This document shows positions 1 through 64,000 of a stretch of 64,000 bases of DNA, piece by piece (the first letter of the stretch is position 1; every line of letters starts with the position of its first letter). Below the pieces are notes generated by a model, which ran no database searches, had not been told where the DNA came from, and saw nothing but the letters and a program-made list of their open reading frames with translations. The stretch is from Acidimicrobiia bacterium (lineage in GTDB: Bacteria; Actinomycetota; Acidimicrobiia; Spongiisociales; UBA5794): contig JAWKJB010000003.1 of NCBI GenBank assembly GCA_041393965.1, forward strand, positions 261,676-325,675. The letters are read 5' to 3'. Both the position numbers and the translations under genes were made by a program.

Positions 1-2
1 TG

Positions 3-1781
3 TCGAACGGCCACGGGTCGATGCTCCTGTACGCCCTGTTGCACCTTTCGGGGTTCCCCCTGACGATGGACGACATCCGCGCCTTCCGCCAATGGGGCTC
101 GGAAACGGCCGGTCATCCCGAGGCCAACCACGCGATCGGCATCGAGACGACCACCGGCCCACTCGGGCAGGGAATCGGTACGGCCGTGGGCATGGCGATC
201 GCCGAGGAGCACCTGAGGGCGATCCACGGCTCGGATCTGGTTGACCACCGCACTTGGGTCTTCGCCGGAGATGGCGACCTCATGGAGGGTGTCTCCTCGG
301 AGGCTGCCTCCCTCGCCGGCCACCTCGGCTTGGGGAAGCTGACCATCCTGTACGACGACAACTCGATCACCATCGACGGGGCGACCGACCTGTCGTTCTC
401 GGAGGATGTCCCGGCTCGATTCGGTGCATACGGCTGGCACACCCTCGCCGTCGACGGGCACGACCGGGCTGCCGTCGCGGATGCCATCGACGCCGCGATT
501 GCCGAACCCGGGCGGCCAACCATGATCGCATGCAAGACCCACATTGGCTTCGGAGCGCCGACCAAGGCCGACACGGCGGCGGCTCACGGTTCCCCGCTCG
601 GACCGGATGAGATCACTGCCACCAAGGAGGCGATGGGTTGGACCCTTCCGGAGTTCGATGTGCCCCAGGAGGTCCATGAGCATTTTGCACGCGCCATGGC
701 GCGCGGCGCAGCGCAGCACCGCTCATGGAGATCGCGACGCGACGCGCTCGACGGCGAGGCACGCTCGGCGTGGGACGCATCGTGGCAGCCGGGGCCCGTC
801 AGCCTCCACGCGCCGGATTCTGAGCCCGGCACCTCGGTTGCGACGCGCAAGCTCTCCCACGCGGTGATCCAGGATCTCGGGAAGAAGCGTCCGGACCTGA
901 TGAGCATCTCCGGGGATCTTGCTCCTTCCACGAACAGCCTGTTCGACGATTCGTCGGACTTCTCGGTGACGAACCGTATCGGCCGCAACATCCGTGCAGG
1001 CATTCGCGAACATGCAATGGGTGCTGCCATCAACGGGCTGACGCAACACGGCGGCGTCAGGCCCTTCGGTGGGACCTTTCTGACCTTCAGCGACTACATG
1101 CGGCCCGCGGTTCGCCTTGCTGCGTTGATGGGCCTCCCTTCGGTGTTCGTGTGGACGCACGACTCGATTTTTCTCGGTGAGGACGGCCCGACCCACCAGC
1201 CGATCGAGCACCTTGCGGCGCTCCGTGCGATGCCGGGGCTGTTCGTGTGGCGGCCGGCGGACCCGACCGAGACCGCGGTAGCGTGGCAGGAGGCGATCAA
1301 TCGGACGGATGGGCCGACCGCGATCGTCCTCACGAGGCAGGGAATCGAGGTTCCCGCAGATCCGTCGGATCCGGCCGCGGCGGCGCGCGGTGGCCACATT
1401 CGTCGTGTCGGCGACGACCTCGTGCTGGTCGCCACGGGATCCGAGGTGCCTCTTGCCGTCGCGACGGCCGACCTGCTCGCCGCAGACGACCTGTCGGTTC
1501 GTGTGGTGTCGATGCCGTGTGTCGAACGATTCCTTCGCCAGCCCGACACCTACCGCGCCGAGGTGCTTGGTGAGGGCCTTCCGGTCTTCACGCTTGAGGC
1601 GGCAGCCACATTGGGCTGGGACCGATTCGTTGCCAACGGCGGAACTTCGATCGGTATCGACTCGTATGGGGCGTCGGCGCCCGCAGCCGTCCTCGCCGAC
1701 AAGTTCGGCTTCACGCCGGAGAGGGTTGCCGCCACGATTCGGGCGGCGCAAACGGAGATTCAAGCAAAGGAGCCACGATGA
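3..1781 (+). CDS. tkt: Transketolase (5'-truncated by window edge)
   Basis: Frame is open from base 3 ([10 protein letters not shown]). Contains TTGPLGQG, the TPP-binding motif GDGDLMEG...[16 protein letters not shown] and [11 protein letters not shown]. Confidence 0.97.
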
Positions 1782-3205
1782 TCGACATTGCCCACGCGAG
1801 CGAGCTGGACACCACGGTTGATGTGGCGGTGGTCCCGGTTCTGGCCGGTGTGGTGCCCATCGACGGTGATCCGTTCGTCCCGGATCTCGGAGCCCTCGGT
1901 TCCATGCTCGAGGCGCGGGACTTCACCGGGAAGGCAGGTCAGTGCGTCTTCGTTCCGAGCGGTACGGCGGCGCCAGAGACCCTGCTCGTCGGATTGGGCG
2001 ACGATGTGGACCTCGAAACACTCCGCAGGGCAGCGGGATCGGCGGCGAAGGCCATCGGCGGCTATACGACCTGTGTTACGACCATGCATCGGGTAGGCCT
2101 TGATGGGGCGGCGGGGGCCGTCGCGATGGGCTTCTGGCTGGGTGCGTACTCGTTCGACGAGTACAAGTCGGAGCCGAAGGCCCGTGCCCTCGCGCGGATC
2201 ACGCTTGTCGGCGGCGACGATGTCACCGACGAACTGATGCACGCCAAGGTGGTCTCCGAAGGTGTCGTGCTCGCACGAGATCTGGTGAATCGTCCCGCAA
2301 TCGACAAGGCTCCTGCGGTACTCGCCGACATCGCAACCGGGCTGGCAGACAACATCACGGTGACGGTCCACGACGAGGAGGCGATCGCCGAAGCCGGTTT
2401 CGGCGGTCTGATAGGGGTCAATCGGGGAGCGGATCGACCTGCCCGGATGGTGGTGATGGAGTATCGCCCGCAGCATGCGGCAAAGACGGTCGCCTTCGTC
2501 GGGAAGGGAATCGTCTTCGACTCGGGCGGGCTTTCGATCAAGACCGCAGCGGGCATGGAGACCATGAAGACCGACATGGCGGGTGCAGCAGCCGTCTTCG
2601 GGGCGATTCGTGCGATCGCCCGCATGGGGCTGCCGGTCAATGTCGTGGGGATCACACCCCTCACGGAGAACCTCACGGGGGGGTCCGCCCAGCGTCCCGG
2701 CGATGTGCTGACTGCCTACAACGGTAAGACGATCGAAGTGCTCAACACTGACGCCGAAGGGCGGCTCGTCCTCGCCGATGGCCTCTCGCTTGCAGCCGAG
2801 ATGGGGCCCGATCTCATCGTCGACATCGCGACCCTGACAGGTGCGTGCAAGGTGGCGCTCGGCCCGACGATCGGGGGCTTCCTCACCGACGACGAGGAGG
2901 CCGCGAACACCGTGGCCGCCGCGGCACAGGCAGCGGGGGAGAAGCTGTGGCGGCTCCCCCTCGAGTCCGAGTACGCCGCGTTGATCGAAAGCGATGTCGC
3001 CGACATGAAGAACACGGGAGGACGATGGGGCGGGACGATCACCGCCGCGCTGTTGCTGCGCGAGTTCACGGGCGAGGTTCCGTGGGTGCACCTCGATGTC
3101 GCAGGACCGGCGAGGGCCGACAAAGCCGAGCACTATGTCTCCAAGGGAGGCTCCGGCTTCGGCGTCCGCACCCTCGTCGCGATTGCGGAAGGGCTCGCTC
3201 GCTGA
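1778..3205 (+). CDS. pepA: Leucyl aminopeptidase (M17)
   Basis: [18 protein letters not shown] and [12 protein letters not shown] motifs. ATGA overlap with the tkt stop. Confidence 0.96.
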
Positions 3206-3490
3206 GTCCAGTGGTCGAGCGACCAGATTTCGGCTTCGATTCCCGATCCTGTTCTTCCAACGAGCGGAGAGTGTCCGTTCATCGTGGTCACCTTTCCACT
3301 TCCGTGGATCCGACTCACCCAGCGGGTGGACCACGATCCGGAGCTGATGGCAACTGCAACTTCGGCACGCGCGGCTCGCAGATCACGATGATCGTTGGGT
3401 GAAGTCGAATCGGGCACCGGTGTTAATCGCGAATTTGAAGAATTCCTCCGTACTGCGTATTCCACCCCAAATGACCACGCCGGGCATGCG
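3205..3490 (-). pseudogene. Possible degraded SnoaL/NTF2-like (ester cyclase-like) fragment
   Basis: Two minus frames read PGVVIWGGIRSTEEFFKFA and DLRAARAEVAVAISSGSWSTRWVSRIH-GKVTTMNGHS-GIEAEIWSLD, which resemble the SnoaL fold pattern. No intact ORF. Resemblance by eye only. Confidence 0.2.
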
Positions 3491-3628
3491 GGTTGGTTTG
3501 GAGAGTGATCCCGGATGCCCGGATCGGCGCGGCGGGGCTTGACAGGGGGGGGTCCTTGAGAGAATGGAGCGCGGCCCTGCTGTCTTGGCCCGATGCGCGT
3601 CAAGGTGCAGCGGAAGGAGGACCGTCGT

Positions 3629-4699
3629 GTGATGGGTTGGAGCGTTGCGACTCGCAGATTCATGATTCTGGCCATAGCGATTCTGTTGACAAGCAGCGGG
3701 CTGGTGGCGCCCGCGGCGGCCAATCATCGGGAGAACCAGCGCCATTGGCCACTCCTGCAATACAACCACCGCGGCGAGGATGTTGTGGCCGCCCAGCATC
3801 TTCTCAACGGGTGGTCGAGTTCGCCGATCACCGTCGATGGCGTGTTCGGAAGCAACACACAAAACTCCGTCTCCGGCTTTCAAGCATCGCGGGGCCTCAC
3901 TGCATCTGGTCGCATCGATGCCGCGACATGGGGTCGTCTCGCACCGACGATGTCACAGGGGTACCCAATAGCGGCACATGTGAAGGCACTTCAGCACCTG
4001 CTGAACAAGAAGCGCGGTGCCGGCTTGACTGTTGACGGAGTGTTCGGACCAGCCACCCGATCGTCCGTACTCGCATTTCAGCAGCATACTGGTCTCGTCC
4101 AAGATGGGATTGTTGGAGACAACACCTGGAAGGCCCTTGCATGGCACTACATCCAGATGCAGGGCTCGATGCCGAACCTCTGCGAGATCGGATCTCAAGA
4201 CAGCCAAGAGTGGGGGCACGCATCCACGGTGGGTGCCGTGGTCAAGGCCGCTTACTACTTCGACCTCGAGTTCTTCGAGGAACTGCCATTCTGGGACACC
4301 TCGGTGGAGCACGGCTACGAGATTTCCGGGCACAGCAGCCACGAGGTCGGTCTCGATGTGGATATCGGCATCATCCTCGACAGCGGAGAGCATTGCACCG
4401 GAGGAAACCCCGGACGCGGTACGGGGTACACAAGCGGATGGTACAACCTCACTGGAATGGCAGAGCTCATCGACGCCCTCAAACGCGGAGCCGACTTCGG
4501 ATCCAATGGGATGATCTCCGTGATGTACTTCAATGACCCGTTCTTCTATCAGAGTGATCCGCTCGTGCGATACGCAACCAGCCACCACCACCATGTCCAT
4601 GTGCGCTACTGTATGACAACCGACACAACGACCCAGCGACCCCACCATCACTCGGCCAACTGGGACTCGGGAAACCCGCAGTATGGAGGATGCAGCTGA
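3629..4699 (+). CDS. Secreted peptidoglycan hydrolase: two PG-binding domains plus a C-terminal MepA-like (LAS) Zn peptidase
   Basis: AAGGAGG RBS at 3614-3620 before a GTG. Signal peptide ending PAAA. Two 'VDGVFG-T-V-FQ-GL-G--TW' repeats. SHEVGLDVD (H-x6-D) and HVH Zn-ligand motifs. Confidence 0.75.
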   Translation: MMGWSVATRRFMILAIAILLTSSGLVAPAAANHRENQRHWPLLQYNHRGEDVVAAQHLLNGWSSSPITVDGVFGSNTQNSVSGFQASRGLTASGRIDAATWGRLAPTMSQGYPIAAHVKALQHLLNKKRGAGLTVDGVFGPATRSSVLAFQQHTGLVQDGIVGDNTWKALAWHYIQMQGSMPNLCEIGSQDSQEWGHASTVGAVVKAAYYFDLEFFEELPFWDTSVEHGYEISGHSSHEVGLDVDIGIILDSGEHCTGGNPGRGTGYTSGWYNLTGMAELIDALKRGADFGSNGMISVMYFNDPFFYQSDPLVRYATSHHHHVHVRYCMTTDTTTQRPHHHSANWDSGNPQYGGCS

Positions 4700-5838
4700 T
4701 GCGTGTCTCCATCCGATTCGCCGCCATCGCCCCTCTGCTGGCTTTCGCCGTTGTTGCATCTGGGTGCGGTGCACAATCGGATACCCAACAGGCCACCACG
4801 GATCCGTCCGCAACGGTGACGGTCGGGGAAAGCATCGTCTCCACTACGACGACAGCGCCGCTCCCGATGACTCCACGCCTGAAGGGAGATTCGCACCGAG
4901 ACCGCGTGAGCGGGTTCGTTTCATCGGGTGTGGAATCGGAGGAAGGCATCGTGAGTCTGCTGATCTCAGACGACGGAGATATTCGAGTGATGGAGTTCGC
5001 GCGAGATGATGCATTCCATGTCCTCTACGACGCCCAGGCTCTCCGCCTTGAGTCATCAAGCGAGCTCGGCATTGTTGTCAATACGGGCGCCCTCCCGGGT
5101 GGCCCGGACCGACCCAACCCATTCCTGCGCGAACAGCGGTATGCCCAGTCGGTCGCCGCCCTCGCTATCGAGCGTGGGGATGGAGAAATGGTCAAAGGCG
5201 ATACGGCGGTGCGGGTGGTCACGATGCTGCCTCAGGATCCGGAAACGGGGTTGACAACGATTCGGGACATGGTCGTCGATGTCGGCAACGGCATGGTGCT
5301 GCGATTCGTTGAGTATCAACCGGGAATGGACCCGCCGGTTGGTATGGGCTCGGCTGCCCGAACCAAGGACATCTCCACTTCGGAGTTCGCGACGACTGCG
5401 GCACCCACCTCGGAGCTCGATCTCGGTTTCGAGCTCGTGGACTCGATCGACGAGGCTGCTACCAGGGCGGGGTTCTCGGTTGAGATTCCTGATCTCCCAT
5501 CGGGGTTCGACCTTGTGCAGGTCGCGTTTGCACCGGCACCCGTATCCGATGTGTCCGGGAGCAAGAATGTGGTTGCACTCGTCTTCAGGAAGGCAGCTTG
5601 GGAGATCGTCGTGACATATCGGGACGCAGCAACACGCGGGGTGTGGACGGATCCCTACCCGTGGGACGGCTATGGGACGCATATCGAGCGACATGGTTCC
5701 TTTGAGGTGGTCACCGGTGGAGCTGTGAACCATGCTTGGGGGGTTGTCGGCGACCGGGTCGTCACGATTGGTGGAGGCGTCGGCGTACCAGATCTTGTGC
5801 GCGCCATACAGAGCCTGGATGAGGAACCAGGGGCGTAG
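4699..5838 (+). CDS. Lipoprotein of unknown function (LolA/RseB-like N-part, DUF4367-like C-part)
   Basis: Lipobox VASG|C and a Thr-rich tether. TGATG overlap with the upstream peptidase stop, with GGAGG at 4685-4689. Domain calls are by resemblance only. Confidence 0.6.
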   Translation: MRVSIRFAAIAPLLAFAVVASGCGAQSDTQQATTDPSATVTVGESIVSTTTTAPLPMTPRLKGDSHRDRVSGFVSSGVESEEGIVSLLISDDGDIRVMEFARDDAFHVLYDAQALRLESSSELGIVVNTGALPGGPDRPNPFLREQRYAQSVAALAIERGDGEMVKGDTAVRVVTMLPQDPETGLTTIRDMVVDVGNGMVLRFVEYQPGMDPPVGMGSAARTKDISTSEFATTAAPTSELDLGFELVDSIDEAATRAGFSVEIPDLPSGFDLVQVAFAPAPVSDVSGSKNVVALVFRKAAWEIVVTYRDAATRGVWTDPYPWDGYGTHIERHGSFEVVTGGAVNHAWGVVGDRVVTIGGGVGVPDLVRAIQSLDEEPGA

Positions 5839-5943
5839 CTCTCAGAATCACGAGTCCTCAGGTGAGGAATCGCTCAGGGTATCCGCGTCTAGGCCCGATA
5901 CAGAGAGAAGTCAATCAACTGCTTTCTGTAAGGGGTCTTCTCG

Positions 5944-6672
5944 ATGCGGGCTGCACGCCGATCGGTCGTTCTCGCCACGGTCACGGCCATGTTCGTCGCC
6001 ATCATGGCGATACCGGCTGTGGCGGGATCGGCGGGTCAGTTCCTTTCCAAGATCAACGCTTCTCGGTCTGCAGCGGGGCTGGCGCCGCTCGAGGGCTACT
6101 GGGATCTCGCCGATGATGCACGGGCCCATTCGAACCTGATGGCCGACCGGGGCGAGCTCTTCCACAGCTCGAACCTCGGGAGTGTGACGACCGGCTGGGA
6201 GCGGCTCGGGGAGAATGTAGGTGTCGGACTCGATGTGGCGTCCCTCCACGATGCGTTCATGGCCTCGTCTGGCCACCGCAAGAACATCCTCGGTGACTAC
6301 AACTACGCCGGTGTCGGAGTGACCGTCGACGACGAGGGGTTCATGTGGGTCACCGTGATCTTCATGAAGGCCGCACCCGGATTGAACGATCCCGAGGAGA
6401 CGACGACCACGACGGCGCCACCGGCAACGACCACGACGACGACCACGACGACGGCGCCACCGGCAACGACCACGACAACGGCGCCACCGGCAACGACCAC
6501 GACAACGGCGCCACCGGCAACGACCACGACCACAACGCAACCCCCGACGACCACCACGGTGTATCGCAGCGCTGACGGTGTTCCCGGCGAGGATGCGATG
6601 GCTGCACAGCTCGAACTCATCGCTCGCTACCCGAGATTCGGCAATCCGTCCCCCGTCGCCCTGATCGATTGA
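5944..6672 (+). CDS. Secreted CAP (SCP) domain protein with Thr/Pro-rich repeat tail
   Basis: Signal peptide. INASRSAAGLAPL, GENVG and SSGHRKNIL-YNYAGVGV are CAP motifs. Confidence 0.88.
   Translation: MRAARRSVVLATVTAMFVAIMAIPAVAGSAGQFLSKINASRSAAGLAPLEGYWDLADDARAHSNLMADRGELFHSSNLGSVTTGWERLGENVGVGLDVASLHDAFMASSGHRKNILGDYNYAGVGVTVDDEGFMWVTVIFMKAAPGLNDPEETTTTTAPPATTTTTTTTTAPPATTTTTAPPATTTTTAPPATTTTTTQPPTTTTVYRSADGVPGEDAMAAQLELIARYPRFGNPSPVALID
6412..6531 (+). repeat. Coding tandem repeat, four copies of ACGGCGCCACCGGCAACGACCACG (TAPPATT)
   Basis: Copies start at 6412, 6451, 6478 and 6505 (spacing 39, 27, 27). Confidence 0.9.
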
Positions 6673-6684
6673 TGGTTCCTCGCG

Positions 6685-8300: not shown

Positions 8301-10106
8301 TCAGGTCGGGTGGTCCGTCGCCAACTCGGCACCGGTTTGCACGGCCCACAGCGTTGCGTAGATACCCCCGGCGTTCACGAGCTCGGTGTGGGTTCCAACC
8401 TCGGCGATCGAACCGCCGTCGAGGACATAGATGCGGTCGGCGTTGCGGATCGTCGATAGGCGATGCGCGATGACGAGCATGGTCCGCTGGTGGCTGATGC
8501 GAGCAAGGGATCGCTGGATCGCTGCTTCGGTCTCGTTGTCGACTGCCGAGGTGGCCTCGTCGAGGATGAGGATGGGGGAATCCGTGAGGAGGGCCCGCGC
8601 GATCGACAGACGCTGGCGTTGACCGCCTGACAGCTTCTGCCCGCGTTCGCCGACGATCGTGTCGTATCCGTTCGGGAGCAGCTGGATGAACTGATGCGCT
8701 TCGGCCATCTCGGCGGCTGTGACGACCTCGTCGCGGGTGGCGTTCGCGACGCCGTACGCGATGTTCTCCGCAACGGTGCCGTGAAAGAGGAACACATCCT
8801 GGCTCACCAATGCCATCGATTGGCGCAGATGCGCGCGCTCAAGGGTGCGGAGGTCGTTCCCGTCGAGCGTGATGGTCCCGGCGTCGGGATCGTAGAACCG
8901 AAGCAGGAGCTTGACAATCGTCGTCTTTCCCGAACCCGTCGCCCCGACAAAGGCCGTGGTCTCGGTTGGGTCCACGCTGAGCGTGAGACCCGACAACACC
9001 GGAAATCCCTCGTCGTAGCTGAAGGTCACATCATCGAACTCGATGCGCCCCTTGGTGTCGGAGGGGTCGATCCGGACGGGCCCGTCGACGATGGTCGGCT
9101 CGGTATGGAGGACATCGAAGATGCGGTTGGTTGACGCCATTGCCCGCTGATACAGATCGACCGTCTGGCCGAGCCGGGTGAGGGGCCACAGCAGCCTCTG
9201 TGTCAGGAAGACCATCACCGAGTAGAGGCCCACATTGAGCTGACCGTCGAGTGCGAGGAAGCCACCCCACACGAGCGTCGCGCTGAATCCCACGAGGATT
9301 GCAACGCGAATGAGCGGGGTGAATGCCGATGACAAGCGGATGGCCGCCCGGTTGGCAACCCGATATTCCTCGGATGCTCCGGCGATGCGTTCGACTTCAC
9401 GCGCCTCTGCCGTGAAGGCCTTGATCGTGGTGATACCCCCGATGTTGTTCGCAAGCTGACTGTTGATGTCGGCCGCCTTTTCGCGGACGGTGGCATAGCG
9501 GGGTTCGATGCGTTCCTGGAACTTGAACGACCCCCACAGGATGACCGGGACCGGAAGGAAGGCGAGCCACGCGACGGACGGCGCGATGATGAAGAAGCTC
9601 AAACCGATGAGCACAACGGTGGTCAGGAGCTGGATGACCTCGTTGGCACCGATGTCGAGGAAGCGTTCGAGCTGGTTGACATCGTCGTTGAGGACCGCCA
9701 TGAGATCGCCGGTCGATCGATCCTCGAAGAAGGCAACATCGAGTTCCTGCATGTGGCTGTATGCGTCGATGCGAAGATCGTGCTGGATCGACTGTGCGAG
9801 GTTGCGCCACTCGATGCCAAGCAAGTACTCGAAGATCGACTCAAGCCCCCAAACGACGAAGGTCACGACCGCAATCGCGATGATCTGGTTCCGCTGCTCG
9901 GTGATCCCGAGGCGCCCCATCAGCGAGTCCGACCCGTTCACCACGACATCGATTGCCATACCGATGAGGAACGGTGGGGCGATGTCGACCGCCTTGTTCA
10001 GGAAGGACCACACGGTCGCGAGCACAATCCGCTTTCGGTACCCGGCGGCGTAGCGCCATAGACGGCGTAGCGGGGGTGCCGGTGTGGTCGCCGTCGTCAT
10101 CACCAA
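8301..10106 (-). CDS. ABC exporter, fused permease/ATPase (MsbA-like)
   Basis: Six-TM N-domain, Walker A GATGSGKT, signature [22 protein letters not shown]. Confidence 0.95.
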
Positions 10107-15754: not shown

Positions 15755-16129
15755 GTGAGTGCCGGTACCACTGTCACCATCAGCCGTGTCTACGCCACCG
15801 ACCGAGCCAAGGGATATCGGGTGTTGGTGGATCGGCTCTGGCCCCGTGGTGTGTCGAAGATCGATGCTGCCCTGGATGAGTGGCTCAAGGATGCGGCGCC
15901 GAGTACGGACCTTCGTCGCTGGTATGGACATCAGCCTGAGCTCTTCGACGAGTTCGCACAACGCTACGAGACGGAACTCGAGGGCTCACCAATCGCCCGT
16001 GATGCTGTGATGCACCTGTTGGAGATCGCGCGCACGCGGGATGTCGTGCTGGTCACCGCGACGAAGGATGTGGAGCATTCGGGCGCTCGGGTGCTCCTCG
16101 ACCACCTCACGAGGCTGCGGATGCAGTGA
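15755..16129 (+). CDS. DUF488/YeaO family protein
   Basis: RVLVDRLWPRGVSK, APSTDLRRWYGH. Confidence 0.9.
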   Translation: MSAGTTVTISRVYATDRAKGYRVLVDRLWPRGVSKIDAALDEWLKDAAPSTDLRRWYGHQPELFDEFAQRYETELEGSPIARDAVMHLLEIARTRDVVLVTATKDVEHSGARVLLDHLTRLRMQ

Positions 16130-23560: not shown

Positions 23561-24433
23561 TCAGCTCTCGGCTGCGTGCCTCGGCCAGTCGTCCCTGAGT
23601 AGGCGTGACAGAGCCCGATCTGCGAGGATCCGGCCCTCGGTCTGACAGGTGGGGCAGTAATTCGTCTCGCGATCCTTCGCGACGATGCGCTGGATCGTCG
23701 CTCCGCACGCCGGGCAGGGCTCGCCGAACTTGCCGTGCACGGCCATGTCCGGATGGAATGCCGTCACCTTGGCGGGGAACCCGCTTCCGGTCTCGGCGAT
23801 GCGCTTGTCGGTCCATTCGCTGAGAACCATCCGGCAGGCGTCGAACAGCGTCGTAATCTCCTCGTCGGTGAGGTTGGTGTTGATCTGGGTCGGGGACAGT
23901 CGGGCGCGGTGGAGGATCTCGTCGGAGAACGACCCACCGATACCCGAGAAGTATCTGGCGTCCGTGAGCGCTCGCTTGAGCGTGTGCCGATTCGTAAGGA
24001 GAGCAGCCGCGAACTCGGACCGGGTGGCATCGGCGATCTCGATACCACCGGGATCGATGTCGTCGGTGTTGCGCAGAACCGCAAGCGAGGCGCGCCGCTT
24101 TGTGCCCGCCTCGGTGAGGACAAGCGTCCCGGTCGAGAAGTCGAAGGCGGCCAGGGTGCCCCGTTTGGGCTTCGAAGGGCGGGTCTCGAACCACCCGAGA
24201 CGACCCGCGACCATCAGGTGGATCACGAGATTCAGCGCATTGTCGAGATCGATGGAGATGCGCTTGCCGATCCTGCGCACACGCTCGACGACCCTGCCCT
24301 CGGTCTCCTCGATCGATGGTTCGACCGTCTTGAGGAGTGAGAACGACACGATCCGGACCTGTTCGAGAACCGCGCCCACGATGCGGTGACGCAACGCGTG
24401 GAGGTACGCCTCGATCTCGGGGAGTTCAGGCAT
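23561..24433 (-). CDS. Fpg/Nei family DNA glycosylase
   Basis: MPELPE N-terminus, HLMVAGR, H2TH GIG, CPAC-CPTC zinc finger. Confidence 0.92.
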   Translation of the reverse strand: MPELPEIEAYLHALRHRIVGAVLEQVRIVSFSLLKTVEPSIEETEGRVVERVRRIGKRISIDLDNALNLVIHLMVAGRLGWFETRPSKPKRGTLAAFDFSTGTLVLTEAGTKRRASLAVLRNTDDIDPGGIEIADATRSEFAAALLTNRHTLKRALTDARYFSGIGGSFSDEILHRARLSPTQINTNLTDEEITTLFDACRMVLSEWTDKRIAETGSGFPAKVTAFHPDMAVHGKFGEPCPACGATIQRIVAKDRETNYCPTCQTEGRILADRALSRLLRDDWPRHAAES

Positions 24434-25147: not shown

Positions 25148-26064
25148 GACACCATCAGGGTCAGGATGGTTGCGGCGACCTCCGGGCCTCCGACCGGATC
25201 GAGGCGGGTATTCACCGCGTGGACGGTGACCCCCCGATCGTGGCCGAGCACCGTGTCGGCTGCGTCGTCGATGTCCACAAAGAGCGCGTCGATGAGCCCA
25301 TCGTACGCGTCGAGAACGCCCTCCGTGCTCGGGGCAAGGCCGAGGCCGGCCATGACGGCATCGGCGGGTCCCTTGAGGGGCTTGCCACCGAACAGGGGAC
25401 TCACCGCTGCCGTGTTCGGATGTGCCGCAACCGCAACGCTGATCGGCTCGATGGCCGAGATGGGCCAGATCGAAAGGGGCGGATTCGAAGGGGCGATGAT
25501 CACGAGATCCGCTTCCGCGATGGCCTCGAGCACACCTGGCGCGGGTCGAGCCTCGACGGAGCCGATGTAGGCGACCGCGGTCACGGCGTCGCGGTGGCGT
25601 CGGTCCACGAAGTAGGTCTGGAAGTCGAGCCACGCGCCGCCGGCGATCTGCACACTTGTCGCGACGGGATCGTCGCTCGCGGGAAGCAGCGTCACATCGT
25701 CGATTCCGAAATGGCGACCGAGGTCAGTCGTGATCACCGACAGTGGAACGCCCTCGTGGAGTCGAGCGGTACGATACGCGCACAGTGCGAAGTCCTTGTC
25801 GCCGAGTCGCATGGTGGTGTCGACCCCAAGGGTGCCGAGTTCGTCCATGATCCGGAAGGTGTCGTTCTCCCGACCCCAGCCATCGGGACCAACGACGCCA
25901 GCCAGGGTGTAGAGGATGGTGTCGGGGTCGGCAGCGATCGTCACGCCGTATCGTTCGACATTGTCCCCGACATTGGCAATCACCGTGAGAAGGCCGGGTC
26001 CGAGGACCGACCGGAGTGCTCGGGCCATGCGCGCCCCACCGACACCGCCGGCGAGGAGAACCAC
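25144..26064 (-). CDS. cofD: 2-phospho-L-lactate transferase
   Basis: LAGGVGGAR, NVGD, DPDTILYTL, LGDKD, APSNP-SI-PI, VSPL-GG-KGPA. Start position is approximate. Confidence 0.92.
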   Translation of the reverse strand: MVLLAGGVGGARMARALRSVLGPGLLTVIANVGDNVERYGVTIAADPDTILYTLAGVVGPDGWGRENDTFRIMDELGTLGVDTTMRLGDKDFALCAYRTARLHEGVPLSVITTDLGRHFGIDDVTLLPASDDPVATSVQIAGGAWLDFQTYFVDRRHRDAVTAVAYIGSVEARPAPGVLEAIAEADLVIIAPSNPPLSIWPISAIEPISVAVAAHPNTAAVSPLFGGKPLKGPADAVMAGLGLAPSTEGVLDAYDGLIDALFVDIDDAADTVLGHDRGVTVHAVNTRLDPVGGPEVAATILTLMVS

Positions 26065-26109
26065 CCGATGATTGAAGTAGGGCCGCTTCGACTCCAGAAT
26101 GCACCTCAC

Positions 26110-36491: not shown

Positions 36492-38839
36492 TGCCGAAGC
36501 CAACAGGACTCACCTCGTCCCAGGTTGCCGATCGCCGGGCCAAAGGGCAGGTCAACACCACCGAACACCGGACCTCGCGAACGGTCGCCGCCATTGTGCG
36601 AGCCAATGTGCTCACCCGCTTCAACGCGATCATCTCGGGGCTGTTGGTTGTCATCCTCATCTACGGTGAGCCACCCGACGCCCTCTTCGGTCTCGTCATG
36701 GTCGTGAATTCGGGAATCGGCATCGTGCAGGAGATCCGTGCAAAACGCACGCTCGACTCCCTACGGCACCGCATCGCGCCAACGGCAACCGTCATCCGTG
36801 ACGGAACCGAGATGACGATCCCTGCCACCGAGATCGTTCTCGGGGAGCTGGTCGCTGTCCGTACCGGGGATGCCGTGCCCGTCGATGGCCGGATCGTGCA
36901 GTCGGACGGACTCGAGATCGACGAGTCGTCCCTGACAGGGGAATCCGATCCGGTCGCGAAGAGCGTTGACGATGAGGTTCGGTCATCGAGTGCCGTCGTG
37001 GCCGGCTCCGGTCTCGTCACGGCGACCGCAGTCGGCGCCGATGCGTGGGCGCACCAACTCACGAGCAAGGCCCGCGAGTTCTCACTCACCGAATCGGGGC
37101 TCCGCAAGGACATCGACCGGCTCCTCGGATGGATTATGTGGGTGATCGTCCCTGTCGGTGTCCTGTTGTTCGCAACGCAGATGTCGAACGCACCAGATGT
37201 GGCGTCGGGTCTCGTGAGCACCGTGTCCGGGATGGTTGCGATGATCCCACAAGGACTCGTGCTCTTGGTGTCGTTGTCGTTTGCGGTCGCGGCGTTGCGC
37301 CTCTCCGAACGCAATGTCGTCGTTCAGGAGCTCGCCGCAGTCGAAGGGCTCGCACGCGTCGATGTGGTGTGCCTCGACAAGACCGGCACGCTCACGACCG
37401 GCACGCTTGAGGTTGAGTCGATCTCCTGCCTCGGCGATGAACAGACCGTGCTGGCAGGGCTCGCGGTGCTTGCGAAGTCCGATCGCAACCCCACCGCCAC
37501 ACTTGCGGTGGTGGCAAGGACGCTCCCCGCCGCCGAGTCGTGGGTTTCGACGGCGACCGTGCCCTTCTCATCTGCGAGGAAATGGAGCGCCGCATCCTTC
37601 GACGGATTCGGGACATGGGTGGTCGGTGCTCCTGAGGTCCTCCTCGACGCCATGGAAGCAAGTCCGACCGTCGAGGCGCTGCGGGAACAGGTCGCCTCGT
37701 TGGCGAAGCGGGGTCGACGCCTGCTCTTGGTCGGTCGCACCGAGGTAGATCTCGACGATCGTGTCGTGCTCCCCTCCCATCTCACACCGGCTGCCATCGT
37801 GGTGATTCGAGAGGAGTTGCGCCCAGATGCCGCCGAGACCCTTCGCTATCTGCGGTCCCAAGGCGTCGCCGTCAAGGTGATCTCCGGCGACCATCCCCAG
37901 ACCGTGTCGGCGGTCGCGACGGAGCTCGGACTCCCTGATGCCGATCGAGCCGTTGACATGCGACGCGAATCCGATCTCACGGCGATCGCTCCCGATGTTG
38001 TGGTGTTCGGTCGGGTCCTCCCCGAGCAAAAACGAGGGCTGCTCGCGCAGCTCCAGGAGCGAGGCCACACGGTTGCCATGACGGGGGACGGTGTCAACGA
38101 TGTCCTCGCGCTCAAGCAGGCAGATATCGGGATCGCCATGGACACGGCAAGCTCGGCGACGAAGGCCGTCTCCCAGTTTGTGCTGCTCGACGGTCGATAC
38201 GATCGTCTCCCCACGATCGTCGGCGAGGGCCGTCGCGTCATCGCGAACATGGAGCGCGCATCGGCGTTGTTCCTCACCAAGACCGTCTATGCCGTGCTGC
38301 TCGCGGTGTGGGTCAGCCTTGCCGGGATCGCGTTTCCGTTCCTGCCCCGACATCTCACCTTGGTCGGAGCGCTCACGATCGGCATCCCCGCTTTCGTGCT
38401 GAGCTTCTGGCCGTCGAACCGTCCAGCAAGGCCCGGCTATCTCGAAAGGACGCTCCATTTCGCCATCCCTGCGGGACTCACCGCCGCCATCATGACTTTC
38501 GCGGTGTACGCGACCGTCCACACCTGGGTCGGCGCGTCCGTGGAGGAGGCCCAGACCGCTGCGACGCTGACCCTCGCGCTCGTGGGCTTCTGGATCCTGT
38601 ATCGACTCATCCGGCCACTCGGCCGTGGTGAAACCGTTCTTATCACGATGCTGATGGCTGGCCTCGTGGCGGCGTTCCTCTTGCCGCCATCTGCTGAGTT
38701 CTTCGCGCTCGAGTTCCCGTCAACGGCGGTAGCTCTTTCCGTGACCGCTGCCACCATCGTCAACATCGTGGCCCTTGAGCTGATTGTGGCGCTCGCGGAG
38801 CGGCACGGTGAGCACATCCGCTGGCTCACAGCACGATGA
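36491..38839 (+). CDS. Cation-translocating P-type ATPase (CtpE-like)
   Basis: DESSLTGES, DKTGT, FSSARKWS, TGDGVND. M4 reads IPQGL. Confidence 0.92.
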   Translation: MPKPTGLTSSQVADRRAKGQVNTTEHRTSRTVAAIVRANVLTRFNAIISGLLVVILIYGEPPDALFGLVMVVNSGIGIVQEIRAKRTLDSLRHRIAPTATVIRDGTEMTIPATEIVLGELVAVRTGDAVPVDGRIVQSDGLEIDESSLTGESDPVAKSVDDEVRSSSAVVAGSGLVTATAVGADAWAHQLTSKAREFSLTESGLRKDIDRLLGWIMWVIVPVGVLLFATQMSNAPDVASGLVSTVSGMVAMIPQGLVLLVSLSFAVAALRLSERNVVVQELAAVEGLARVDVVCLDKTGTLTTGTLEVESISCLGDEQTVLAGLAVLAKSDRNPTATLAVVARTLPAAESWVSTATVPFSSARKWSAASFDGFGTWVVGAPEVLLDAMEASPTVEALREQVASLAKRGRRLLLVGRTEVDLDDRVVLPSHLTPAAIVVIREELRPDAAETLRYLRSQGVAVKVISGDHPQTVSAVATELGLPDADRAVDMRRESDLTAIAPDVVVFGRVLPEQKRGLLAQLQERGHTVAMTGDGVNDVLALKQADIGIAMDTASSATKAVSQFVLLDGRYDRLPTIVGEGRRVIANMERASALFLTKTVYAVLLAVWVSLAGIAFPFLPRHLTLVGALTIGIPAFVLSFWPSNRPARPGYLERTLHFAIPAGLTAAIMTFAVYATVHTWVGASVEEAQTAATLTLALVGFWILYRLIRPLGRGETVLITMLMAGLVAAFLLPPSAEFFALEFPSTAVALSVTAATIVNIVALELIVALAERHGEHIRWLTAR

Positions 38840-43369: not shown

Positions 43370-43444
43370 CGGCACCGAACGCCCGGTATCGGGGGGATGC
43401 AGCGGGGTTCAACCAAAGGGCTCGGACCCGTACACTTGTCAACG

Positions 43445-46105
<2,661 letters not shown>

Positions 46106-48247: not shown

Positions 48248-49360
48248 ATGGAACCCGTCGAGCTTCGCGCAATCGTCGCTGATCTCTCGGAGCGCCTTGC
48301 CGATGCTCGATCGTTTCTCGATGTCGACGGCAAGGAAGCCGAGTTGGGCGAGTTGCGTCGGCTGGCGTCGGCACCGGACCTGTGGAACGACAAGGACCGA
48401 GCCCGCGAGGTGACCCGAAAGCTCGCACGATTCGAACGAATCATCGGCCATGTCACCGATCTGGATCGCTCGGTCGAAGATCTCAGCGTCCTCCTCGAAC
48501 TCGCAGTCGACGAGGAGGACGCCGGAGCTCTCGCTGAGGTCGAACAGGAACTCGACGGCCTCGGCAAGGAGGTCGCGACCCTTGAGCGTGAATCGCTGTT
48601 CTTTGGCGAGTACGACGATCGTCCCGCCATCGTGTCGATCTCCGCCGGTGCCGGTGGCGTCGATGCCCAGGACTGGGCCGACATGCTCGTTCGGATGTAT
48701 CACCGGTACCTCGAACGATCGTCGTTCAGCTTCGTGGTCGATGAATACCAGGAAGGGGAGGAGGCAGGGATCAAGTCGGTCACCCTCACGATCACCGGCG
48801 ACAACGCATATGGCACCTTCGAATCCGAACGAGGGACGCACCGGCTCGTGCGGATCAGCCCGTTCGACTCCCAGGCACGGCGCCACACGGCGTTCGCCGG
48901 TGTCGATGTGATCCCGGAAGTCGAAGTCGAGGACCTCGAAATCGATCCGGAGGATCTCCGTATCGACACCTACCGGGCTTCTGGCGCTGGTGGCCAGCAT
49001 GTCAACAAGACGGATTCGGCGGTTCGGATCACCCATCTTCCAACGGGTGTGGTGGTGTCGTGCCAGGCCGAACGGTCCCAGATGCAGAACAAGGCGAGAG
49101 CGATGCAGCTTCTCGCTGCGAGGCTTGCGGAGCGGGCGCGTGAGGAGCAAGCCGAGACAGTCGCTTCGATCCGCGGGGAGCAGCACGAAGCGGGATGGGG
49201 GAGACAGATCCGCTCCTATGTGCTCCAGCCCTACCAGATGGTGAAGGACCTCAGAACGAACTTCGAAGTGGGCGATGTCCAAGGGGTGCTCGACGGTGAC
49301 ATCGATGGACTGATCGATTCCTATCTCCAATGGCGTCGGGCCGAACAGTACGAGGCGTAG
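48248..49360 (+). CDS. prfB: Peptide chain release factor 2 (continuous ORF)
   Basis: SPF recognition loop, GGQ, QIRSYV. No internal frameshift is needed. Confidence 0.97.
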   Translation: MEPVELRAIVADLSERLADARSFLDVDGKEAELGELRRLASAPDLWNDKDRAREVTRKLARFERIIGHVTDLDRSVEDLSVLLELAVDEEDAGALAEVEQELDGLGKEVATLERESLFFGEYDDRPAIVSISAGAGGVDAQDWADMLVRMYHRYLERSSFSFVVDEYQEGEEAGIKSVTLTITGDNAYGTFESERGTHRLVRISPFDSQARRHTAFAGVDVIPEVEVEDLEIDPEDLRIDTYRASGAGGQHVNKTDSAVRITHLPTGVVVSCQAERSQMQNKARAMQLLAARLAERAREEQAETVASIRGEQHEAGWGRQIRSYVLQPYQMVKDLRTNFEVGDVQGVLDGDIDGLIDSYLQWRRAEQYEA

Positions 49361-52548: not shown

Positions 52549-52550
52549 GC

Positions 52551-54300: not shown

Positions 54301-54656
54301 GGGGGTGACATGGTTTCGACCGTGAGCGTTGATGCGTCGGAAGCGAGCCGAGGTTGCCGGAGTCCTCGTAAAAGAGCCGGTATCAACATAAGTGCAGACA
54401 ACGAAAGTTACGCACTGGCAGCGTAGATAAACGCTCCTGTCCGACCGGAGGGCTCCCACCTCGCCGGGCCCGGGCATTGCAATGTGGGATGCCCCCACCG
54501 GGGTTCCGTGACCGGTGGGGAAAGACGATTGCGGATAGGGCATGGGGTTGCTTGCCGGCAGGGTCCCCGTGGTCCGAACGCTCGCTGCTGGCTGCGCTCG
54601 GAGATGCCGACGCTGAAATCTTGCGGGACGGGGGTTCGATTCCCCCCACCTCCACC
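54301..54656 (+). ncRNA. ssrA: tmRNA
   Basis: 5' GGGGGTGACATGGTTTCGAC. Acceptor stem GGGGGTG/CACCTCC with G3-U70. T-arm GGGGTTCGATTCCCC. Internal tag ORF. About 1 kb from smpB. Confidence 0.97.
54394..54426 (+). other. tmRNA tag reading frame (A)ADNESYALAA*
   Basis: GCA resume codon after ATAAGT. Ends in YALAA then TAG. Confidence 0.9.
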
Positions 54657-54660
54657 CACC

Positions 54661-59487: not shown

Positions 59488-59552
59488 GTGCAGGTGGCGG
59501 AGCAGCGCCCCGCAGAAGAAGTGCCGAACGAACGGACACCAAGGAGCCACCG

Positions 59553-60395
59553 ATGAGTCGTGTCGTACGCGCAGCCATCCTCCAAACCGAGTGGACCGGC
59601 GACAAGGAATCGATGATCGAACTCCACGAGGAGTACGCAAGGAAGGCAGCAGCCGACGGCGCCAAGGTGATTTGCTTCCAGGAGCTGTTCTACGGCCCGT
59701 ATTTCTGCCAGGTGCAGGACATCGAGTACTACGGGTACGCCGAGGCGATCCCGGACGGACCCACCACGCAACGATTCCAGAAGATCGCCGCCGAGCTCGG
59801 CCTTGTCATGGTGCTCCCAATGTATGAACGGGAGATGGCGGGCTTCTTGTATAACACGGCGGCGGTCATCGATGCAGACGGCACCTATCTCGGCAAGTAC
59901 CGCAAGCATCACATCCCCCATGTCGGTGGCTTCTGGGAGAAGTTCTACTTCCGTCCGGGCAACAGCGACTTTCCCGTGTTCGACACGGCCGTCGGGAAGG
60001 TCGGCGTCTACATCTGCTACGACCGCCACTTCCCTGAAGGATGGCGGGCCCTCGGCCTCAACGGGGCCGAGATCGTCTTCAATCCGTCAGCGACGAGCCG
60101 GGGCCTCTCGTCGTATCTGTGGCAACTCGAGCAGCCCGCATCGGCGGTAGCAAACATGTACTTCGTCGGGGCGATCAACCGAGTCGGTGTCGAGGACCTC
60201 GGTGACAACGACTTCTACGGCACCTCGTACTTCGTCGATCCGCGCGGCCAGTTCGTCGGCGATGTCGCAAGCGACAAGGACGCAGAGCTCGTGGTGCGCG
60301 ACCTCGATCTCGACAAGATCGAGGAGGTTCGCAACACATGGGCCTTCTACCGCGACCGGCGTCCCGACGCATACGATCCACTGGTTCAGGCCTGA
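59553..60395 (+). CDS. Beta-ureidopropionase (nitrilase superfamily)
   Basis: E-K-C triad (FQELF, YRKHHIP, YICYDRH), FWEKFYF, and linkage to dihydropyrimidinase. Confidence 0.88.
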   Translation: MSRVVRAAILQTEWTGDKESMIELHEEYARKAAADGAKVICFQELFYGPYFCQVQDIEYYGYAEAIPDGPTTQRFQKIAAELGLVMVLPMYEREMAGFLYNTAAVIDADGTYLGKYRKHHIPHVGGFWEKFYFRPGNSDFPVFDTAVGKVGVYICYDRHFPEGWRALGLNGAEIVFNPSATSRGLSSYLWQLEQPASAVANMYFVGAINRVGVEDLGDNDFYGTSYFVDPRGQFVGDVASDKDAELVVRDLDLDKIEEVRNTWAFYRDRRPDAYDPLVQA

Positions 60396-60400
60396 TCCCG

Positions 60401-61690
60401 ATGGGTGTCCACGCCGAACTCACCGAACGCACGAGGGCGGTGATGCCGTCGTGGCTCGCTTTGTACTACGACGAGCCGATTGCGATCGATCGCGGCGATG
60501 GCCGGACCGTGTGGGACCTCGAAGGGAACGAGTACCTCGACTTCTTCGGCGGCATCCTCACCACGATGACGGCCTACGCACTCCCCGAGGTGACCGCTGC
60601 GATCAACGAGCAGGCGGCCAAGGTCCTCCACACCTCGACGCTGTACCTCAACCGACCGATGGTCGAGCTCGCAGAAATGGTCGCGGAGCTGTCAGGGATC
60701 CCCGATGCTCGTGTCTTTTTCACCCCATCAGGAACCGAGGCGAACGATGCAGCCATGTTGCTTGCGACCTCGTTCCGGCGATCGAATCAGGTGCTTGCCC
60801 TTCGCAACAGCTACCACGGGCGGAGCTTCACGGCCGTGGCACTCACCAGCCACCGTTCGTGGTCGCCAACGAGCTACTCGGGGCTCCAGGTCCATTATGT
60901 CCAAGGGCCGTACAAGGCGCGGAGCCCGTATGCCCACCTCGACGACGACGCATTCACCGCTGCGGCAGCGAGCGACCTCCAGCAGGTCATCGACATGATG
61001 ACATCGGGGGATGTCGCCGCCATGATCGCAGAGCCGATCCAAGGCGTCGGCGGCTTCGCAACCCCTCCCGACGGGTTCTTCGCCCGCTTCAAGGAGATCC
61101 TCGACGAGTACGGCATCCTGTTCGTCGCCGATGAGGTCCAAACCGGGTGGGGACGCACCGGCGAGTACTTCTGGGGCTACCAGGCCCACGACATCACGCC
61201 GGACATCATGACCTTCGCCAAAGGGATCGGGAACGGGCTGTCGATCGGCGGGGTTGTCGCTCGAGCCGACATCATGAACTGCATCGGTGCAAACTCCATC
61301 TCGACCTTCGGCGGCAACCCTCTGGTGTGTGCCGGCGCACTTGCCAACCTGCGGTATCTCCTCGAGCATGATCTCCAGGGAAACAGCCTCAAGCAGGGAA
61401 CCCGCCTGTACGAACGGTTGTATCCGATCTCGCAAGACACACCGTGGATCTTCGAGCTTCGGGGCAAAGGCTTGATGCTCGCGATCGAAACCGCCCACCC
61501 CGGTTCGGGGGACCCGGACGCCGGGCGCGCGAGCCGCCTCCTCGAGGAATGCAGACAGCGAGGGCTCCTGGTTGGGAAAGGGGGCTTGTACGGGAATGTG
61601 CTGCGCATCGCCCCACCCCTGTCGGTGACCCAACACGAAATCGATACGGCCGCCGACATCATCGCCTCGGCCGTGTCAGCGATCGACTGA
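60401..61690 (+). CDS. Class III aminotransferase, probable beta-alanine:pyruvate transaminase
   Basis: YLDFFGGI, SYHGR, DEVQTGWGRTG, TFAKG, STFGGNP. The substrate is inferred from context. Confidence 0.85.
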   Translation: MGVHAELTERTRAVMPSWLALYYDEPIAIDRGDGRTVWDLEGNEYLDFFGGILTTMTAYALPEVTAAINEQAAKVLHTSTLYLNRPMVELAEMVAELSGIPDARVFFTPSGTEANDAAMLLATSFRRSNQVLALRNSYHGRSFTAVALTSHRSWSPTSYSGLQVHYVQGPYKARSPYAHLDDDAFTAAAASDLQQVIDMMTSGDVAAMIAEPIQGVGGFATPPDGFFARFKEILDEYGILFVADEVQTGWGRTGEYFWGYQAHDITPDIMTFAKGIGNGLSIGGVVARADIMNCIGANSISTFGGNPLVCAGALANLRYLLEHDLQGNSLKQGTRLYERLYPISQDTPWIFELRGKGLMLAIETAHPGSGDPDAGRASRLLEECRQRGLLVGKGGLYGNVLRIAPPLSVTQHEIDTAADIIASAVSAID

Positions 61691-61704
61691 AGAGGAGGAT
61701 CGGC

Positions 61705-63129
61705 ATGAAGACCATCATCTCGGGAGGAACCGTCATCACCGCCGTGGACATCATGGCCGCGGATGTGCTCATCGTCGATGAGACCGTCGCTGCGCTCGCC
61801 TCGCCCGGTTCGCACGATTGGGCCGATGATGCCGCCACCGTGATCGACGCCACCGGGAAGTATGTCATCCCGGGTGGCATCGATCCGCACACGCACATGG
61901 AACTCCCTTTCGGCGGAACGGCCGCATCGGACACCTTCGAGACCGGGACCAGAGCCGCGGCGTGGGGTGGTACCACGACGATCATCGACTTCGCTGTCCA
62001 GACCAAGGGTGAGAGCCTTGTCGGCGGGTTCGACAACTGGATGGAGCGCGCAAGCGGCAACTGTGCCATCGACTACGGCTTCCACATGATCGCGGGTGAC
62101 ATCAACGAGACATCCCTCAAGGAGATGGAGGTCCTGATCGACCGGGGCTGCACCTCCTTCAAGCTGTTCATGGCCTATCCGGGGGTGTTCTACTCCGACG
62201 ACGGCGACATCTTGCGTGCCATGCAAAAGGCAGCCGACACCGGGACCTTGATCATGATGCATGCCGAAAACGGGATGGCGATCGATGTCCTTCGCGAACA
62301 GGCGCTCCAGCGCGGCGAGACCGACCCGAAGTACCACGGGTTGACGCGTCCACCGATCACCGAAAGCGAGGCGACGCATCGCGCCATCAAGCTTGCCGAA
62401 CTGACAGGGGCGCATCTGTATGTGGTGCACATGTCGGCCAAAGAAGCCGTTGCCGAGGTCGCGAAGGCCCGGGACGAAGGCCTCCCCATCTTCGGTGAGA
62501 CCTGTCCACAGTACTTGTTCCTCACCCACGAGGAGCACCTGAGTGCACCCGGGTTCGAAGGCGCCAAGTATGTCTGCTCGACCCCGATCCGGAAACAATC
62601 GGAGGGCCATCAAGATGCCCTGTGGCGGTACCTCGCAACCAACGACCTCCAGGTCATCTCGACCGACCACTGTCCGTTCTGCATGGACGACCATCCCGTC
62701 CTCGGGACGCAGAAGAAGCTCGGGCTCGGCGACTTCACGGCGATTCCGAACGGGCTCCCTGGTGTCGAGGACCGCTACCAGCTGATCTACCACGGTGGTG
62801 TGGTCGGAGGCAGGATCAACCTCAACCGATGGATCGAGCTGTGCGCCACCGCACCCGCCAAGCTGTTCGGCCTTTTCCCGAAGAAGGGCACCATTGCGGT
62901 TGGCTCCGATGCCGACATCGTGGTGTTCGATCCCGGTGTCTCGTGGACCAAGTCGGTTGATCAGCACCACATGGATGTCGATTACTCCGCCTACGAAGGC
63001 ATGGAGGTCGAAGGACGCGTCGAGACGGTGCTGCTGCGTGGCAAGGTGATCATCGACAACAACTCGTATGTCGGAGTCAAAGGCGACGGTCAGTATCTCC
63101 CACGCGACAAAATGTCCATTCACCACTAG
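61705..63129 (+). CDS. hydA: Dihydropyrimidinase
   Basis: [40 protein letters not shown]. Confidence 0.95.
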
Positions 63130-63152
63130 GCCCCAGAGGCACCGGAGCACAC

Positions 63153-64000
63153 ATGAAGCAGATCAACCACATCATCGGGGGCGCCGAGTTCGTCTCGACT
63201 TCGGGTCGGACGAGCACCGTCTACAACCCAGCGACAGGCGAAGCCGCCGCCACGGTCGGCCTCGCCTCGGTGGACGAGGTCGATCACGCCGTGGCCGTTG
63301 CCAAGGCGGCGTTCGAATCGTGGGCAAGGACTTCGGTCGCCAAACGAACCGCGATCATGTACCGCTTTCGGGACCTCGTTGACCACCACGCGAACGACTT
63401 CGCCGCCCTGCTCACGGCCGAGCACGGCAAAGTGCTGTCGGACTCCCTCGGCGAGTTGCAGCGCGGCCTTGAGAACATCGAATACGCATGCGGCTTGTCC
63501 GAACACCTCAAAGGCGGGTTCTCCCAGCAGGCGTCAACGGACATCGATGTCTATTCGGTGCGCCAGCCCCTTGGTGTGGTTGCCGGCATCACGCCGTTCA
63601 ACTTCCCCGCGATGGTGCCGATGTGGATGTACCCCAATGCCATTGCGGCAGGCAACTCGTTCATTCTGAAGCCTTCAGAGAAGGACCCGAGCGTGAATCT
63701 CCTCGCGGCCGACCTCCTCGCCGAAGCTGGCCTTCCGGACGGTGTGTTCAACATCGTGCAAGGCGACAAGATCGCGGTGGATCGGCTCCTCGAACACCCC
63801 GACATCCAGGCAGTCTCGTTCGTCGGTTCGACACCGATTGCCCGATATGTCTACACCACCGGGACCAACAACGGAAAGCGGGTCCAGGCACTTGGCGGGG
63901 CAAAGAACCACATGATCGTCCTCCCCGACGCAGATGTCGGTGTTGCGGCGGACGCAGCGATCAGCGCAGGCTACGGGTCTGCTGGAGAACGCTGCATGGC
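63153..64000 (+). CDS. mmsA: CoA-acylating (methyl)malonate-semialdehyde dehydrogenase (3'-truncated, absent from the ORF track)
   Basis: My translation shows [42 protein letters not shown] and GSAGERCM. Confidence 0.95.

Follow-up and report, generated by a model that had tools for sequence, protein, structure and literature searches.

Gene content of the locus

Our analysis concerned a single window of 64,000 bases, the whole stretch of contig JAWKJB010000003.1 that was studied, from an uncultured wastewater Acidimicrobiia bacterium whose DNA in this window does not once contain the four-letter palindrome ACGT. The window is ordinary bacterial core chromosome, about 86% of it coding according to gene calls based on GC content at third codon positions (GC3), which were made for this analysis and from which the 9.1 kb treated below as non-coding also follow. 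It holds genes for transketolase, leucyl aminopeptidase, an ATP-binding cassette (ABC) exporter, PBP1A with PASTA domains, methylmalonyl-CoA mutase, acyl-CoA carboxylase subunits, propionyl-CoA metabolism, an Fpg/Nei glycosylase, phosphoglucomutase, a P-type ATPase, and S-adenosylhomocysteine (AdoHcy) hydrolase, along with hpf, secA, prfB, ftsEX, a gene for an M23 peptidase, and smpB. The relatives of its SecA protein are Acidimicrobiia (Actinomycetota).

Absence of ACGT

Counted directly, and again in a separate pattern search, ACGT occurred zero times on either strand, against 213 expected from base composition, 212 from a second-order Markov model, 285 ± 15 from dinucleotide-preserving shuffles of the window, 195 from a codon-aware model of the coding DNA (168) combined with the Markov model for the non-coding DNA (27), and 190–316 from the ACGT density of the closest relatives (3.0–4.9 per kb). 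Already at the lowest of these expectations, the Poisson probability of finding none is about e^-200, and the observed/expected ratio of 0 has a 95% upper bound of about 0.014. A preliminary description of the window, made from its letters alone, had claimed the absence of ACGT and had put the chance expectation at roughly 200 sites; the count bears out the absence (0 against 212–285 expected), and the estimate was of the right size. That description had also proposed setting ACGT against other 4-mers under a Markov expectation, and GTAC (171 observed/197 expected), AGCT (170/164), TGCA (177/214), TCGA (856/859), and GATC (718/780) all proved normal; together with CGCG, GCGC, CCGG, and GGCC, they stood at 0.83–1.04 of expectation. 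The window therefore displays the pattern of restriction-site avoidance, in which a short palindrome is depleted while comparable palindromes are normal.

The depletion was specific to this word. No other 4-, 5-, or 6-mer in the window was depleted to a comparable degree, no 5-mer or 6-mer free of ACGT deviated beyond |z| = 5.2, and the one-letter neighbours of ACGT were all mildly enriched (1.02–1.22). Since the neighbours ACGN and NCGT were enriched rather than depleted, the avoided word is exactly ACGT, and a broader or different motif was rejected. As a separate observation, CTAG was scarce in the window (7 against 30 expected) and in the relatives too, which reflects the general bacterial avoidance of CTAG and is unrelated to the loss of ACGT.

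Synonymous replacement of ACGT

The word was avoided in each of the three reading frames and in genes of either orientation, in coding DNA (none of the 168 sites expected from amino acid pairs and codon usage) and the 9.1 kb outside the gene calls (none of 27). In the frame written here as NAC-GTN, the hyphen marking the codon boundary, every one of the 167 codon pairs in which Asp, Asn, His, or Tyr precedes Val had a T-ending first codon (NAT-GTN), so that C-ending codons fell to 0% from 71% in other contexts; the preliminary description had read this use of T-ending synonyms before Val exactly. Threonine before a codon starting with T was never encoded by ACG (0/110, compared with 41% elsewhere), and arginine after an A-ending codon was never encoded by CGT (0/216, compared with 14% elsewhere). 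The gene for transfer-messenger RNA (tmRNA; 54301..54657, + strand, identified with Rfam and ARAGORN, tag ADNESYALAA) reads ACGC at positions 54610–54613, where the aligned gene of a relative (L163) reads ACGT. The purging of all three frames, both orientations, non-coding DNA, and the tmRNA position indicates that the pressure falls on the DNA or its transcripts and not on translation, and an effect of translation or codon pairing was rejected on the same grounds.

Comparison with orthologues revealed how the word had been replaced. The marker gene secA (43397..46105, + strand, NCBIfam SecA hit) has orthologues in the syntenic relatives L161, L162, and L163, and their ACGT sites in this gene correspond to synonymous pairs in the window, for example GAC GTC to GAT GTC, GCA CGT to GCG CGC, and ACG TAC to ACC TAC. 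Across the 144 positions at which these three relatives carry ACGT within a gene, both amino acids were conserved at 92 (64%), close to the 0.62 that the background predicts (0.785 squared). At NAC-GTN positions, the window had ATGT in 52 of 52 cases; at ACG-T positions, it had ACCT (10), ACAT (3), or ACTT (3); and at A-CGT positions, it had GCGC, GCGG, ACGG, and similar words. No change from Thr to Met, or from Arg to Cys or His, was found among the 144 positions. The replacement of ACGT has left the proteins untouched, being synonymous in all three frames. Its visible cost is that every Asp, Asn, His, and Tyr codon before Val is held to the less-used synonym.

Independent sequence from the same organism

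The window comes from a metagenome-assembled contig of 446,824 bp in an NCBI assembly, probably built from long reads, and long-read base callers are known to make systematic C/T and G/A errors at methylated motifs. Real ACGT sites might in principle have been lost to such methylation-induced base-calling or consensus errors, to a misread modified base, or to assembly or polishing. Errors of this kind are blind to reading frame, yet the replacements were synonymous and included transversions (ACG to ACC) as well as changes of A-CGT to G-CGC, and the 144 orthologous sites showed no excess of amino acid change over the background. The organism occurs in three wastewater metagenome runs (X1–X3) of one study, and the k-mer (Logan) contigs built independently from these runs showed zero differences from the window over multi-kilobase pieces at about 7× depth. 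An independent Logan contig of 3,494 bp (L164), which encodes a protein identical to that of prfB (release factor 2; 48248..49360, + strand), likewise contained no ACGT, against 11 expected. Sequences of other organisms in the same runs, overlapping conserved genes, do carry ACGT (as judged from a loose-end consensus), which means that the platform does not lose the word. A sequencing or assembly artefact is therefore scarcely credible and was rejected, because the synonymous replacements respect the reading frame, independent contigs agree exactly with the window, and co-sequenced organisms do have ACGT.

The runs also contained some strain variation. One contig from run X1 differed from the window by six single bases within 140 bp of the ABC-exporter gene (window positions 9228–9366), none of which creates ACGT; the differences point to either a second strain in that sample or a patch altered by recombination. 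Eight strain variants were seen in the runs altogether; none creates ACGT, although this number is too small for a test.

Selection and deamination

The preliminary description had named either selection or mutational erosion as the cause of the loss. If erosion acted alone, an ACGT-specific 5-methylcytosine (m5C) methyltransferase, whether an orphan or part of a restriction-modification (R-M) system, would make the cytosine hypermutable, and the word would decay to ATGT and ACAT with no nuclease selecting against it. The largest class of sites is consistent with such decay, NAT-GTN being the synonymous deamination product of NAC-GTN, and Helicobacter pylori offers a precedent: its ACGT losses are skewed to ATGT and ACAT and are attributed mainly to deamination, which has largely brought the word down to about 53 per Mb in hpEastAsia (PMC10423294). 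However, NAT is the only synonymous escape at NAC-GTN and so is uninformative about the route taken. Where a choice exists, the deamination product was not preferred, as threonine before codons starting with T was encoded by ACC (63) far more often than by ACA (15) or ACT (10), and ACCT outnumbered ACAT by 10 to 3 at the orthologous sites. In the A-CGT frame, deamination on either strand turns Arg into Cys or His, and such sites would be expected to persist under deamination, yet none was present against 14–17 expected. Moreover, the complete lack of C-ending codons at the 167 NAY-GTN pairs, compared with 71% elsewhere, could be maintained only if C mutated to T more than 100 times faster than T mutated back.

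An excess of ATGT and ACAT, which the preliminary description had proposed looking for, was indeed seen (1.22-fold), but it was no greater than that of the neighbours NCGT and ACGN (1.16–1.21), so that losses did not run mainly to the deamination products beyond other neighbours; the divergence of the relatives is saturated, which makes the original path unrecoverable. Taken together, the purging of A-CGT, the preference for ACC over ACA, and the lack of special enrichment of ATGT and ACAT favour selection on the double-stranded DNA word, which fits better than the decay of methylated cytosine alone. Of the two causes first named, selection on the word is thus the one favoured, while erosion on its own is disfavoured by the loss of A-CGT and the use of ACC over ACA. 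A methyltransferase as the only cause of the loss is unlikely, and we regard decay with no nuclease behind it as quite unlikely to account for the window.

Distribution among relatives

The loss of ACGT is confined to this lineage among the loci compared, since all 172 related loci had the word at 0.5–1.5 of expectation. In 80 SecA-linked loci taken from one genome per GTDB species (best SecA identity 77%), ACGT stood at 0.58–1.53 of expectation, and in 80 metagenome SecA loci (best SecA identity 75%), it stood at 0.53 and upward, the 25 lowest lying at 0.53–0.95. The nine contigs with the closest SecA proteins (82–87% identical), which come from at least 7 assemblies and are syntenic with the window between its positions 31 and 56 kb, had ACGT at 0.67–0.97 of expectation, and apart from the organism's own Logan contigs, a search of 5.8 billion proteins yielded no SecA closer than 87% identity. 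A Joint Genome Institute (JGI) contig (L172) bearing a prfB fragment 79% identical to that of the window carries three ACGT sites of the NAC-GTN type where the window has NAT-GTN. No relative sharing the loss was found among the 80 GTDB loci, the 80 metagenome loci, the nine closest contigs, and a member of the prfB 90%-identity cluster. Depletion tracks one lineage and not its relatives, an observation that bears on lineage specificity and not on the presence of any particular system. Because the relatives keep ACGT, the word must have been lost after this lineage diverged from relatives whose proteins are about 78% identical to its own.

The preliminary description had also suggested that putative accessory genes in the window came from relatives under the same pressure. 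This idea found no support, as the nearest syntenic relatives (SecA 82–87%) keep ACGT at 0.67–0.97 of expectation, and the window offered no genes that could clearly be classed as accessory. The strongest candidate for DNA outside the core is the segment of lowest GC content (0.61) at 3206..6684 (+ strand), which encodes secreted peptidoglycan-binding and CAP-domain proteins according to Pfam hits; it contains no ACGT against 11 expected locally.

The pressure against ACGT is recent or still acting. The window contains 3,782 4-mers that lie one substitution from ACGT, of which 578 could reach it synonymously and 522 lie in non-coding DNA, providing about 1,100 effectively neutral one-step routes to the word, each requiring one specific change. 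Fewer than three new ACGT would be expected only if neutral divergence since the pressure stopped were below about 1%. Zero ACGT in the face of these routes implies that the pressure was in force until, at most, about 1% of neutral divergence ago.

Phages and plasmids exposed to restriction by their hosts typically show complete loss of short sites (PMC6286503, PMC10359461), which raises the question of pressure from outside, with the DNA of the lineage regularly meeting the ACGT-cutting enzyme of another organism through DNA exchange or intimate association and evolving in a phage-like manner. The window, however, is the core chromosome of an ordinary free-living bacterium (secA, prfB, smpB, tmRNA, transketolase, PBP1A, propionyl-CoA metabolism), nothing in it suggests a parasitic or mobile lifestyle, and relatives in similar habitats are unaffected. 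We consider such an outside source highly improbable.

Several further observations concern the relatives themselves. The nearest of them (L161–L170, SecA 82–87%) were mildly but consistently poor in ACGT, with a pooled observed/expected ratio of about 0.86, whereas more distant Acidimicrobiia and Actinomycetota mostly stood near 1.0–1.2; given these mildly ACGT-poor relatives, the clade may have met ACGT-targeting systems earlier. The GC content of the window (63.8%) is 3–5 points above that of most of the closest relatives (58.5–61%), L170 being at 67%. A search for phages through the 3' end of the tmRNA gene as an attachment site returned one IMG/VR contig (L171, IMGVR_UViG_3300033074_001449; 51.6 kb), which carries the exact 32-nt 3' end of the clade's tmRNA, likely as its attachment site. 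It had a normal ACGT content, with 10 sites in 3.5 kb where 12 were expected; its host is therefore probably a relative, and the search was uninformative for the organism studied here.

Other features of the window

Two large open reading frames (ORFs), at 25219–28905 (+ strand, 1,228 amino acids) and 31395–33674 (+ strand, 759 amino acids), had no sequence match in Pfam, NCBIfam, PADLOC, or PDB. The only genes with a flavour of DNA repair are those for a DUF488 protein (15755–16129, + strand), assigned by Pfam to the inactive N3 subclade, and the Fpg/Nei-type DNA glycosylase (23561–24433, − strand), and nothing ties either to ACGT. The mechanically called ORFs for a class-III aminotransferase (60338–61690, + strand) and an amidohydrolase (61444–63129, + strand) overlap by about 250 bp, and the true start of the amidohydrolase probably lies further downstream than 61444. 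The slot of the P-type ATPase gene (36491–38839, + strand) varies in content between relatives: L161 and L163 have the ATPase gene there, L165 has a malic enzyme gene and a cupin gene, and L167 and L168 have a cupin gene only.

Proposed mechanism

With somewhat better than even confidence, we attribute the purging of ACGT to an ACGT-specific Type II restriction activity, with or without modification, that is encoded outside the window. We infer separately, from a window of 64 kb, that the agent is a nuclease or R-M system, that it is encoded by the host, and that the absence holds genome-wide. ACGT is a 4-bp palindrome, the kind of target that a dimeric Type IIP enzyme would be expected to have, and palindromes make up only 16 of the 256 possible 4-mers. 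The preliminary description had identified ACGT as the target of enzymes of the MaeII/HpyCH4IV type with an m5C methyltransferase, and this is documented: MaeII is a Type IIP system that recognises ACGT and includes an m5C methyltransferase (PMC10113651), and in H. pylori the same word is the target of the m5C methyltransferase M.Hpy99XI, of the HpyCH4IV type (PMC10423294). For a known Type IIP palindrome that one lineage has lost through selection acting on the word in its DNA, the best explanation is a resident ACGT-specific restriction activity.

Under this mechanism, the lineage would have removed every ACGT and would keep removing new ones through purifying selection on the double-stranded DNA word, the agent being a restriction activity of the MaeII/HpyCH4IV/TaiI kind. 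Each ACGT would pose a risk of self-cleavage whenever methylation was incomplete or absent, and alleles losing the word by a protein-neutral change would be favoured until none were left. The cost would scale with the number of sites, and selection for loss would not weaken as sites vanished. A long-lived system in a large population could in this way carry the removal of ACGT to completion, and deamination of methylated cytosine may have sped the loss at NAC-GTN. Once no sites were left, a protective methyltransferase would become dispensable, as it is for PacI (PMC3488263).

Several points weigh against a restriction activity of this kind. Scans of the window with NCBIfam, Pfam, PADLOC, and PDB, covering every sizeable ORF and including those of unknown function, found no methyltransferase, nuclease, transposase, or defence gene, every product being a housekeeping protein or one of unknown function; this agrees with the suggestion in the preliminary description that the responsible gene is encoded elsewhere, but it also means that we infer the agent itself. 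R-M systems protected by methylation normally produce partial depletion and not zero. If a population is very large, extreme deamination at a site could indirectly bring about selection against A-CGT. Because ACGT is a palindrome, pressure against ACGU in transcripts would look alike in transcribed DNA, and the analogous loss of AGCT from pandoraviruses has been tied to no R-M system (10.1101/712018).

The last two points, together with the lack of any R-M gene in the window scans, also favour an agent unrelated to restriction that makes ACGT or ACGU harmful. Candidates would be a sequence-specific endoribonuclease toxin, a DNA-binding protein or signal that needs the word to be unique, and self-protection against a DNA-binding small molecule with a preference for ACGT or CpG. 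Three features of the window match the AGCT loss of pandoraviruses, namely complete absence, confinement to one clade, and undirected synonymous replacement (10.1101/712018), and with a palindrome, pressure on the DNA is indistinguishable from pressure on its RNA. On the other hand, ACGT is a well-documented restriction target as well as a palindrome, non-coding DNA was as thoroughly purged as coding DNA, and nothing positive for any such agent was found in the window. A non-restriction agent is, in our view, unlikely.

The restriction activity that we favour might also act without modification, as an unguarded ACGT-cutting nuclease to which the host would be immune only through a genome cleared of ACGT. 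We hold this arrangement to be possible but doubtful. If it were true, incoming DNA would be cut about every 250–300 bp, with no methylation for a phage to acquire or mimic, and phages and horizontally transferred genes could hardly enter the lineage.

Comparison with known systems and implications

For MaeII, HpyCH4IV, and TaiI, the likeness to the window rests on the word, their recognition sequence being identical to the one missing here, a 4-bp palindrome protected by m5C. H. pylori resembles the window in the word itself, in very strong depletion, in differences between lineages, and in the synonymous change of NAC-GTN to NAT-GTN. Unlike the window, it keeps tens to hundreds of ACGT per genome, and the window has also been purged in frames that offer no silent route by deamination. 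The host of the window is, moreover, an environmental actinobacterium of 64% GC whose nearest relatives are unaffected and in whose 64 kb no such enzyme was found. At the hpEastAsia density, 3.4 ACGT would be expected in 64 kb and zero would occur with a probability of 0.03, so that the depletion is at least as extreme as in the strongest known case, a statement that stops short of absence from the whole genome.

The restriction enzyme PacI of Pseudomonas alcaligenes is found in a host with neither a methyltransferase nor sites (PMC3488263), and in the organism studied here, as in that host, protection would come from the absence of sites and not from modification. Here, zero ACGT was counted in 64 kb and in one independent 3.5-kb contig. 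The PacI site, however, is an 8-bp word made only of A and T and is rare by chance in a GC-rich genome, whereas a 4-bp site expected about every 250–300 bp would have needed active removal thousands of times. In clade-A pandoraviruses, AGCT is totally absent, and R-M was tested experimentally and excluded (Poirot et al., 10.1101/712018). There, as in the window, one palindromic 4-mer has gone from one clade through undirected replacement, and no responsible enzyme has been identified; the difference lies in the word and in the bearer, a giant virus of amoebae in the one case and a cellular genome in the other. In prokaryotes at large, palindromic restriction sites are avoided in that short targets are under-represented relative to Markov expectation, usually partially (PMC4687349, PMC6286503), unlike the ratio of 0 (upper bound about 0.014) in the window. 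By analogy with these systems, the window appears to be an extreme new example of restriction-site avoidance.

The 64 kb seen here belong to a genome of probably several megabases. Actinobacterial 16S genes usually carry TACGTAGG near position 530. Searches of the literature turned up no description of a bacterium that lacks ACGT, and if the absence were genome-wide, no cellular genome missing a four-letter word expected thousands of times would, to our knowledge, have been reported before this one. The absence of ACGT would then be a sharp marker for binning the contigs, plasmids, and phages of this organism in metagenomes. The finding opens three questions to testing: what each site costs in fitness through self-restriction, whether a protective methyltransferase is dispensable to a host, and to what degree a barrier of this kind cuts a lineage off from phages and gene transfer. 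If genome-wide, the loss would mean that a free-living bacterium of high GC content can take restriction-site avoidance all the way to its end point.

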